Positions 33,590 to 36,800 of a DNA stretch of 64,000 nucleotides are shown in pieces (positions within the stretch are counted from its first letter, which is position 1; every line of letters starts with the position of its first letter). The notes below the pieces were generated by a model. That model was given only the letters and a program-made list of their open reading frames with translations. It did not search any database and had not been told where the DNA came from. The stretch comes from a virus (Duplodnaviria > Heunggongvirae > Uroviricota > Caudoviricetes). The stretch lies in IMG/VR virus record IMGVR_UViG_2778261087_000003. One strand, 5' to 3'. Made by a program: the position numbers and the translations under genes.

Positions 33590-33680
33590 TATCTGCAATC
33601 AGGCTGGCGCGAGTTCTGTTTTTTTTTCGGGCCGGTCTGATTTTCACATACTGTAAGGTTATTGCATATTCCTCCTAGTC

Positions 33681-33734
33681 TCTTCCCATTTTGACCCAGT
33701 TCTTCCCATAAATATCTCACTTATTCCCTGTCAT
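33681..33734 (+). repeat. Three direct repeats TCTTCCCAT / TCTTCCCAT / TATTCCCTGTCAT at 20-21 bp spacing; candidate transposase-binding sites at the element end
   Basis: Seen directly between mor stop and the point where the sit reading frame resumes. Confidence 0.4.
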
Positions 33735-33893
33735 TTATCTCAAGTCTAATCATCTCGTGTAGTTCAGGAGGGCATTGCTCAACAGGAACAGCAGGCCAAA
33801 TCAACTACACCAAAGGGTAAAAAACGACGCAGGAAGGCTATACCAGAGGATATAAAGGCACAACGGACCGAAGCAGCCGAACACGCTCGCGAA

Positions 33894-36800
33894 ATGTTCG
33901 ATCAAAAAGGCGGTGCGCAAAAAAGCCAAAACCAACGCGATGCGCGTGGTCGTTTTATTGGAAAGTCAGGGAGTAAGGCCGCAGCGGAAGATGCCCGTGC
34001 TGAACGTGCTGAAAAGGCCAGGCGCAAAGAGGATGATGAGCGTCTAAATGCTGAATCAGGTTTATTAAAAAAACTGTCAAAAGTAGCTGAAGGCATAGGT
34101 AACCCTTCAGAGACTCGTGCCGTCGATGCGTTAGGTTATGCCGTTGCTGGTCCATTGTGGGCAGCAGGGAAGGAGCTTGGCGGGATATCAAAAGAAGTTG
34201 GTGGATCGCTTAATGGTGCCAGAAAGTCTATTGCCGATGTGATTCGTGGCAATGACGATAACAGCCGTAGAAAAGGTTTTTTTAGGCGTAAATCGCAAAA
34301 TAGTGCCGATGTCGTTCAGGTTAACACCCAAAAACGGACGGTTCAGGAACTTCAGGAGCAGACCAGCGAAATTAAAGAGGGCAATGACAAGATTCTCAGC
34401 GCCCTTGATCAGATAGCCAAAAACACCGGGAAAAAGAAGGGCGGCTTGCTGTCCAAACTATTTAGCCTGTTAGGGAAGGGGGCCGGTGGCGTCGCGTCGT
34501 TGTTAATGGGGCGTGGCATGCTGAAAAAAGCTGGAGCACTCGCTTTTGGCGCTCTGGGGGCAAAGAAACTTGTAGGAATGCTACGCGGTGGTGGCAAGAA
34601 GACTCTCGCCCATGAAGGCGGAGATTTGGCTGCCCGGGCAGCAGGTAAACTTGGATTAAAGGCAGTTGGTAAAGGGGCGTTACGCGCAATTCCCCTGGTC
34701 GGCACAGTGGCTGGAGGTATTTATGATGCGGTAACCGGTTGGAATGATACAGAAGCGCAACGTCGAGCGTTTGGGCTTAAATCAGGACAAGATCCATCAT
34801 TCCAGCAAAAAGCCGCTTATACGTTAGCTAATGTTCTTGATATGGGGGGACTGGTATCTGGTATTAGCAGCGCCATTGGTGAGGTTCTCAAATCACTTGG
34901 ATTTGAGGATATCGGCAATATGTTGCAATCATTTTCGACGGAAAGTATTGCCCAGGCCATTGATAGTGGGATTACCAACTTAGAAACATATATTTCTAAC
35001 CTTGGCGACACCATTTCTACCAAGTTCGATGATTACACAGCAAAGATTGGTGATGCTGTTTCAGCATGGTTTAGCGATACATCTAATAAGCTGCTTGAAA
35101 AGCTGGATGCCATCAAAGACTTCTTTACTGTCGATAACCTGAAACAGGTTTTCAGTGATGCAATTGATAGTGCAATTGATTTCATTAAGAACCCAGGGAA
35201 ACACATTAAAGAGGCGGCTGGTAATATTTGGGATGGGGTTAAAAATTTACCTGGTAAAGCATTAGATGCAGCGGTTGATGCCGTTAAAAATACCCCTGCG
35301 GCAATGATTGTATCAAAAATACCCAATCCGATCGGCGAGGCTAATGCGAAAGAAATCACTCCAGAGTTAAAAGCTCCGGTTAATAGCCACCAGGAGACAT
35401 CTGATTCTAAAACTGAATCCGATGCCAAACAGACTAATATTGTTACCCGCGTGATAAATGCGGCACTGGACACGGCGAAAGATAGCAATAAAACAGTTAA
35501 AGAAACTGCTAATCAGATTATCAATGCAAATGCCGTAGAAACGGGCAATAGCGCGTTGCAGAAAATTGATAAAGCTATTGGTCAAAATAGCTCGTCATCA
35601 TCGTCGCTTAATACCACTGGCACCAGGAATGACATTCAGAAAGCTGCGGATACCTACAACAATGGCCGCTTGGATGTAAAAGTCGGAAGTCTTGGCGCTG
35701 AAGGTAAGGCAAATCTCGATAAGTTGGCTCCGTATTTTGCTGAACTAGAGAATAAATATGGCCTTCCTGAAGGTACTCTTTACGCGATCGCTGCAACTGA
35801 ATCTGGTGGTGATCCTAACGCAAAATCTACGCTTACAAGATCACCAAATGGAAAGCTAAGTGGTGGCGCTCTCGGAATGTTCCAGTTTACGAGCGTTGCT
35901 CGTGAGGAAACTGGATTATCCCGGGAAGATTCTTTTAATCCGGAAAAATCGGCAGAAGCTGCGGCTCTTCTCATGAGCAAGTATCTGAAGCAAGCCAATG
36001 GAGACTTAAACGAGGCCATCACTGCATATAACGCTGGGTTTGGCACTATCAATAAGTGGAAAAAAGGCACAGGTGACTTATCGAAAGAAAACCGTGAGTA
36101 CGCGATCAAGGTCAATACTCATCGTGCTCGCTATTTAGGTGGTGAAATCTATACACCTGGAGCAGGAGCACAGGGTGGGGCGCAATATGGAGTGAGGGGA
36201 CCACTGCCTGATAACGCTGTTATCGATCAGTCTACTGGCTTGGCGTTTACCCTTGGTGATAGCCCGTTTGAGAAAGGCGGTCTGGTAGACAAAATCGGCA
36301 ATGCTGTTGGCGTTAACGATCTGGTCAACAAATTCATGAATGGCCGGGGTATGCGTCGGGAAGTCGTTCAGGGAACGCTCGAAGAACGTGCACGAGGGAA
36401 GGGGACCGCAACAGCAGCTGGCAATGTGTATGTTGATACCCCGATGCCAGTTGAAGAGGCGCGTCCGGTGGCCAACAACTCAAGTTACTTTGACCAGCTC
36501 GGCGCACAAATGGGGATTGATGGACTATTCGATAAACTCCTCAACTCGCCGGGGATGCGGAAAAATAATGCGCCTGAACCAGCCTCCACGTCCCAGGTGA
36601 CGACTGCCGCCAACGATTTGCAGCAACCAACCGGTCGTATGCAGATAGACGGACAGGTTATTAGTGACCTTGGCGGCTCCGGTGCCAAGCCGACAATGCA
36701 GTTGGCTGATAATACCGTTTCACTTGATGGTGAAACGAAGCGGCTGTTTGCGCAGATGACCTCATTGCTTGCCAGGATTGAAGAGCACACCAAAGACTCG

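Follow-up and report, generated by a model that had tools for sequence, protein, structure and literature searches.

Evidence for a BcepMu-type transposable prophage inside the tape-measure gene sit of a P1-like plasmid prophage of Escherichia coli

How the sit gene of a P1-like phage comes to begin at an internal codon, directly beside the end of a Mu-like prophage, is the question raised by IMG/VR virus record IMGVR_UViG_2778261087_000003, from which one stretch of 64,000 nucleotides (nt), hereafter the window, was analysed. The window corresponds to positions 1-64000 of NCBI contig NNXF01000006.1 (GCA_002486955.1; E. coli), which is 130,020 bp long. An initial annotation, made from the letters of the sequence, had proposed that a Mu-like transposable prophage lies inserted in the 5' part of sit. 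The comparisons reported here uphold that proposal and indicate that a phage of the BcepMu type very probably integrated by DDE transposition into sit of a P1-like (IncY-type) plasmid prophage of E. coli, duplicating the hexamer TCTCGT at its target.

A megablast search of window positions 30000-40000 against phage records placed an abrupt break at 33752/33753. To its left, PhiKM, a phage filed under Bcepmuvirus, covers 30000-33752 at 96.7% identity and stops at 33752; to its right, P1 and some twenty P1-like phages match 33753-40000 at 94-99%, the identity to P1 records being 98.3-99.0% over 6.2 kb. The break is the boundary of two sequences that are each 97-100% identical to known elements, and not a chance pattern. 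The P1-side match starts 261 nt into sit (sit occupying 2740-6162 of the P1 stretch used, with the match running from 3001), and the frame 33753-36914 aligns without gaps to residues 88-1140 of P1 Sit, with 1029 of 1053 residues identical (98%). The alignment to P1 sit that the initial annotation had put forward as a check gave the abrupt onset it foresaw, the first residue past the junction being that of internal codon 88 of 1140. P1 Sit is 1140 amino acids (aa) long (P1 annotation; PMC9024508) and is indeed longer than the 1006-aa open reading frame (ORF) reported by gene callers. The description of a frame without a start codon running into that ORF was likewise accurate: a TAA at 33747-33749 is followed by a frame open from 33750 into the ATG at 33894, the 48 codons ahead of 33894 hold no start codon and match Sit 88-134, and the ATG itself is internal Met135 of Sit. 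The SLT domain is present in this remainder (Pfam, 90.4 bits). Sit, which the initial annotation took for an injection protein, is now considered the tape measure of the P1 tail, with its SLT lytic transglycosylase domain at the C-terminus (PMC9024508).

Sit sizes vary among P1-like plasmids (1140, 1239, 1246 and 1263 aa), and such variation would be in keeping with an ordinary N-terminal variant of sit, or a miscalled start, with the prophage merely beside an intact P1 gene. This explanation is refuted by the sequence on both sides of the break and has a virtually nil probability: all Sit variants compared share an N-terminal MERKNAN… region that is absent upstream of 33753, the codons without a start match Sit itself, and the upstream DNA is the prophage end, in which no P1-like sequence was found by megablast and alignment. 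A full-length Sit within 33894-36914 with P1-like sequence upstream of 33750, which the initial annotation had named as evidence to the contrary, was not seen, the alignment running only from residue 88.

The base at 33752 is a terminus of the element known at many other sites. The 300 nt left of the junction were found in hundreds of complete E. coli genomes, always ending at the same base, with unrelated flanks (ycaL, mgsA, yehK, rimK, dcuC, hycH, nhoA and others), and an identical 30-nt terminus stands beside six different flanks. When both ends of several chromosomal copies were compared, the element proved to be bounded by 5'-TGATGCGCCGCGCGATAAATG… and …CTCAAGTCTAATCA-3', with TGATGCG… and …TAATCA at every copy examined, that is, with termini TGAT…ATCA; common to the two ends are TGAT at the terminus and, at a distance of 12 nt, a G(A/C)GATAAATG box. 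The copies in NZ_CP061758.1 (IS4321/Tn3 beside the invertase) and NZ_AP040232.1 are rearranged and were not used to define the left end. Direct repeats of 6 bp flank the element at three chromosomal copies, TCTATC at dcuC, GCTGGT at yehK and GCTGGT at mgsA, where the initial annotation had anticipated a 5-bp target duplication. A duplication of 5 bp was also considered for the sit insertion and rejected, since the dcuC copy needs 6 bp and 5 bp would give read-through and not an 89-aa ORF. A fourth copy, with rimK/aroA ends (NZ_AP040232.1), has no target duplication, which suggests from its sequence that it was rearranged by recombination between two prophage copies.

The mor gene closes the early arm at 33589, as first annotated, and the stretch between mor and the terminus contains no ORF. 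Here TCTTCCCAT occurs exactly at 33681-33689 and 33701-33709, a spacing of 20 bp, and a third copy, TTATTCCCT, is found at 33721-33729; the three repeats of the initial annotation therefore stand as two exact copies, whereas the third is degenerate. A box, CATTTATCTC, at 33732-33741 occurs inverted, twice, at the left end. By analogy with R1-R3 of Mu, these subterminal repeats and boxes are plausibly putative transposase-binding sites. Just after mor, at 33597-33642, a T9 run lies between the arms of a 16-nt inverted repeat that is imperfect (81% complementary); the repeat is conserved in all element copies looked at, is not a canonical terminator and was not scored as an intrinsic one in the scan.

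If the element entered sit with a 6-bp duplication, the missing head of the gene would have a precise form. The right-hand copy of TCTCGT, at 33753-33758 on the + strand, corresponds to sit codons 88-89, and the insertion point would lie between sit codons 89 and 90. The predicted left junction would consist of sit codons 1-89 ending …GGGGACGTTTCTCGT, followed by the element's left end TGATGCGCCGCGCGATAAATGCAC…; it would read …TCTCGT followed directly by TGATGCG…, that is, sit nt 1-267 and then the terminal TGA of the element, ending the sit head. The prediction, set beforehand, was that a 6-bp duplication would leave an 89-codon sit head stopped by the left-end TGA. Head candidates were N-terminal sequences from several P1-like plasmids, looked up as exact proteins, and one gave an exact match, WP_244580378.1, of 89 aa (MERKNAN…KRLNLGDVSR), equal to Sit residues 1-89. 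Its record reads 'hypothetical protein [Escherichia coli]', without the label 'partial', and the protein is encoded on a single contig of 130,020 bp, equal in size to that of the window. Both halves of sit can accordingly be placed on the same contig from these records, the head ending exactly as predicted, and the N-terminal part of Sit expected beyond the insertion by the initial annotation is accounted for. The left copy of TCTCGT, and hence the duplication at this insertion, would follow from the 89-aa ORF ending …SR and then a stop. When the 89-aa head served as a homology query, all hits were short cluster representatives, and none came from NNXF01000006.1. For annotation, a single disrupted gene underlies both the 1006-aa 'Sit' and the 89-aa 'hypothetical protein', each representing one half of it.

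The form of sit that was hit can also be specified. Two 188-aa head candidates of the long form are absent from the protein collection by exact look-up, so the insertion sits in a short-form sit; an undisrupted short-form sit in NZ_CP021729.1 is 99.3% identical to the reconstructed gene and is a plausible form of the target. The long form (1239-1263 aa), present in many P1-like plasmids, carries a 297-nt tandem duplication near the 5' end, as in NZ_CP023381.1 (943-1506 of the fetched locus), NZ_CP026475.1 and NZ_CP017632.1; Sit being the tape measure, its extra 99 residues might lengthen the tail.

The second end of the prophage had been placed left of the window in the initial annotation, but position 1 of the window is also position 1 of the contig and falls within the prophage, which excludes that location. 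The other prophage junction would instead lie at the contig's opposite end, the 130-kb molecule being presumably circular, together with about 2.4 kb of the left part (invertible segment, invertase and left end) expected from the layout of the chromosomal twin described below. The sizes agree: 130,020 - 33,752 - ~2,430 leaves ~93.8 kb, the size of the P1 genome, so that the molecule would be a circular plasmid of about 130 kb made of roughly 94 kb of P1-like DNA and 36 kb of prophage.

Several points weigh against this reconstruction. The second TCTCGT and the TGATGCG of the left junction rest on the length and name of a protein and not on DNA. TCTCGT forms the last 6 nt of a 165-nt block of high identity, of which long-form sit has tandem copies at a period of 297 nt; short-read assemblies often break at this block, which accounts for the many 'partial' 89-aa Sit fragments on record. 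It is chiefly this coincidence of hexamer and repeat block, for which there is no explanation, that keeps an assembly artefact under consideration. Furthermore, NNXF01000006.1 is a draft-assembly contig whose circularity is presumed, the window does not reach the replicon and partition genes, and the loss of P1 function and the activity of the Mu-like element are matters of inference. A chimeric assembly, in which a contig of the Mu-like prophage was wrongly joined to a contig of the P1-like plasmid at sit, would agree with a P1 side whose first 6 nt are the last 6 of the sit repeat block, with the many public assemblies whose contig-end Sit fragments measure exactly 89 aa, with a contig that itself breaks inside an invertible segment, and with the absence of the junction from every other record of the collections searched. 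It has nonetheless only a very slight chance of being correct. The join is seamless and coincides exactly with the last base of the element, and the two sequences have no stretch in common by which an assembler might have overlapped them. The missing part of sit is present on this contig as a complete ORF, which stops where the 6-bp duplication and the TGA of the element would have it stop. The contig has the size of a P1-like element plus the prophage, and no target duplication would come from a misjoin.

Mu-type elements that transpose replicatively generate cointegrates. A replicon fusion, in which the P1-like element resides in the chromosome between two Mu-like copies and was collapsed into an apparent circle of 130 kb, could arise in this general way; some genomes carry 2-3 copies of the element, and the chromosomal copy without a duplication in NZ_AP040232.1 points to rearrangement between copies. 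An assembler would, however, branch or break at 33752 in such a case, yet the contig runs through, its sole break lying in the invertible segment. Fusion is thus considered very unlikely, and, the sit junctions being the same, it would change the location of the insertion and not the finding.

The inserted element is Mu-like in organisation and differs from classical Mu in its transposition enzyme. The transposase matches Pfam rve only, with no Mu-transposase-specific domains at E<=0.001, and the 30000-40000 query gave no megablast match to Mu among phage records. The TG…CA termini and a rve transposase related to Tn552 are given as hallmarks of the BcepMu type (Summer et al. 2004, as cited in PMC2628397). 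On this evidence, the transposable element recognised in the initial annotation is Mu-like as stated but is, judged by its sequence, of the BcepMu type with a rve/Tn552-like transposase and not a classical Mu. Positions 96-33752 differ from a chromosomal prophage of E. coli O68:H12 97.3 by 5 mismatches in 33,657 nt, with no gaps (99.985%), and so close a match to a chromosomal twin implies that the insertion is recent. The prophage is probably intact and, being nearly pristine, probably remains active. In the chromosomal twin (NZ_CP061758.1, 4139-6066 of the fetched locus), a frameshift interrupts the invertase, and partial transposase genes of IS4321 and the Tn3 family adjoin the left end. 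The features of both elements are collected in Table 1.

Table 1. Positions in the window of the prophage, the disrupted sit gene and neighbouring features.
Feature	Position	Strand	Remarks
BcepMu-type (Mu-like) transposable prophage	1-33752		~33.7 kb of an element of roughly 36-37 kb
Structural genes of prophage	1-21833	-	Gene calls
gix/cix-like crossover site, edge of the prophage's invertible tail-fibre segment	102-121		16/20 match to reverse complement of P1 cixR
Early operon of prophage	21931-33589	+	Gene calls
DDE transposase, 589 aa	26801-28570	+	Pfam rve 35.8 bits (cut-off 32.6); homologous copies annotated DDE-type integrase/transposase
AAA+ ATPase, transposition partner (MuB analogue)	28581-29747	+	Pfam AAA_22 73.4 bits
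Gam	30047-30577	+	Phage_Mu_Gam 140.4 bits
GemA	32779-33228	+	GemA 139.7 bits
mor, 129 aa, last gene of early operon	33200-33589	+	Pfam Mor 147.8 bits
Prophage right end (attR-like)	33590-33752	+	No ORF; subterminal repeats; terminus …ATCA-3'
sit remainder	33753-36914	+	Sit 88-1140; separated from its own start codon and late promoter LPsit
1006-aa ORF reported by gene callers	33894-36914	+	Starts at Sit Met135; truncated call
pmgA, bplA, gene 16	36914-39536	+	Downstream genes of the LPsit late operon in P1; gene calls
P1 cix sites bounding C segment	41412-41431, 43633-43652		Core AACCAAGGTT
cin	43647-44207	-	

The P1-like partner is collinear with P1 from sit via pmgA, bplA, 16, R, S, the C segment, cin and darA to darB, with darB and prt at the window end, and is about 98% identical over 24 kb to IncY plasmids. 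The four closest plasmids were fetched, and all are typed IncY as one among several replicons. The replicon and partition genes (IncY repA, parAB) are predicted at about 109-114 kb of the contig, outside the window. In the P1 annotation, LPsit lies upstream of pmgC and serves pmgC-tub-pmgB-sit-pmgA-bplA-16, the next late promoter, LPs, lying upstream of R.

With the tape-measure gene split, the P1-like phage would no longer make tails. The set of essential virion genes is incomplete, sit being divided between residues 88-1140 in the window and 1-89 elsewhere on the contig. The sit remainder, pmgA, bplA and gene 16 would now stand about 36 kb from LPsit, and a polar effect would be expected. 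The P1 headful is about 100-110 kb, which a composite of 130 kb exceeds. From the split sit, the displaced late genes and the oversize composite together, infectious P1-like particles are not expected; among the displaced genes is pmgA, whose product is essential for tail morphogenesis (PMC9024508). The P1-like element would survive as a plasmid only, its plasmid functions, outside the window, presumably being untouched. No intrinsic terminator was predicted by a scan between mor and the sit remainder, so read-through from an induced prophage may be possible.

Such a composite appears to be rare and unreported. The prophage family was found in 640 of 5,426 complete E. coli genomes (12%), at 709 places, 708 of them chromosomal and one on a plasmid. 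In PLSDB, 11 of 72,556 plasmids match the prophage transposition genes, five of them at full length; two full-length matches, at 99.2% identity, are in records of 377 kb and 542 kb, and one of the other nine was looked at, Enterobacter kobei NZ_CP043512.1. No P1-like plasmid in PLSDB carries the prophage at 99% identity, and none of the about 480 PLSDB plasmids that carry this part of sit has the junction. The junction is not spanned by any record of the three collections compared (phages, PLSDB and complete E. coli genomes), and its 44-nt sequence has no exact match in IMG/VR; no independent copy of the insertion thus came to light. Literature searches likewise gave no earlier report of a P1-like plasmid harbouring a Mu-like prophage. 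The mechanism is ordinary and follows from near-random transposition of the Mu type, with nothing mechanistically new. The locus is of interest as a recent case from nature in which transposition of one temperate phage has inactivated another, and as a sign that a common Mu-like prophage of E. coli can occasionally ride on plasmids.

Comparison with known systems places the two partners more closely. Like Mu (Muvirus), the inserted element is of the temperate myovirus type and has TG…CA termini; its early operon encodes Gam, GemA and Mor besides a transposase and the partner ATPase, its tail-fibre genes lie on an invertible segment that has a Gin-type invertase at one end, and it inserts in many unrelated genes with a duplication of fixed length. 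Unlike Mu, it duplicates 6 bp where Mu duplicates 5, its transposase has the rve core only, its early operon and structural genes are divergent, and its nucleotide similarity is to PhiKM. With the BcepMu-type phages, including their E. coli relative PhiKM, it shares the rve-core transposase and TG…CA termini, and in its early region it matches PhiKM at 96.7% identity, whereas its target, another prophage on a plasmid, sets it apart. The PhiKM 'partial genome' (PQ738613.1, 6754-7130 of the fetched stretch) runs past the right end into an Fe2+ ABC transporter permease gene and then tail-fibre genes, and the record appears, from this arrangement, to include packaged or flanking host DNA at its joined ends, as expected for a Mu-type phage. 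Relative to P1 and the P1-like IncY phage-plasmids (Punavirus), the recipient is 98-99% identical and collinear from sit to darB, but its sit is split after codon 89 by a foreign prophage of ~36 kb, and the ~130-kb composite is larger than any listed P1-like phage genome. On the conjugative side, E. kobei NZ_CP043512.1 carries, within the stretch 64727-107664, a plasmid-borne prophage of the same family whose transposase and ATPase genes are 89.5% identical at the nt level; in contrast to the present case, its carrier is a 142.5-kb conjugative IncFIA/IncFII plasmid and not a phage, and no second phage is inactivated. This conjugative plasmid gives the prophage family a route between hosts.

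Phage-plasmids are reported to drift to plain plasmids, giving rise to defective P1-like plasmids, with transposable elements named among the drivers (Pfeifer and Rocha 2024, PMC10879196). As in the cases treated there, a P1-like phage-plasmid deprived of an essential function of the virion can live on as an ordinary plasmid; unlike them, where loss proceeds by gene deletion, by exchange or by insertion sequence elements, and where Mu-like elements go unmentioned, a single insertion of one whole transposable phage is responsible here. The composite would offer a one-step route from phage-plasmid to plain plasmid, a transition that comparative work has inferred for the most part from the loss of genes (PMC10879196). 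Other public E. coli contigs (59-95 kb, and one of 3.6 kb) encode short N-terminal pieces of Sit that continue into unrelated sequence, such as a bleomycin-hydrolase-like one after MERK…ELAG, which suggests that sit or its neighbourhood may be disrupted or deleted in other P1-like plasmids too.

The two partners also each bring an invertible segment. Identity to the twin prophage starts at 96, beside the crossover site nearest the window start, and other chromosomal copies are contiguous across it; the contig can thus be read as starting ~100 bp inside the prophage's invertible segment, a typical assembly break point, and it probably breaks there because both orientations of the segment were present in the sequenced culture. 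A second invertase would be expected at the far end of the contig. It is unlikely that the composite serves as a natural intermediate for swaps of host-range modules between Mu-like and P1-like phages and that early-operon read-through or activation might also drive the orphaned P1 tail genes. The homology of the Mu G and P1 C segments has long been noted, and the composite brings two phages with homologous Din-type invertible tail-fibre cassettes together on one replicon. The core AACCAAGGTT is common to all three Din-type (gix/cix) sites of the window, one Mu-like and two P1-like; with Cin and the expected second invertase, cross-recombination between the Mu-like and P1 crossover sites over about 41 kb is conceivable.

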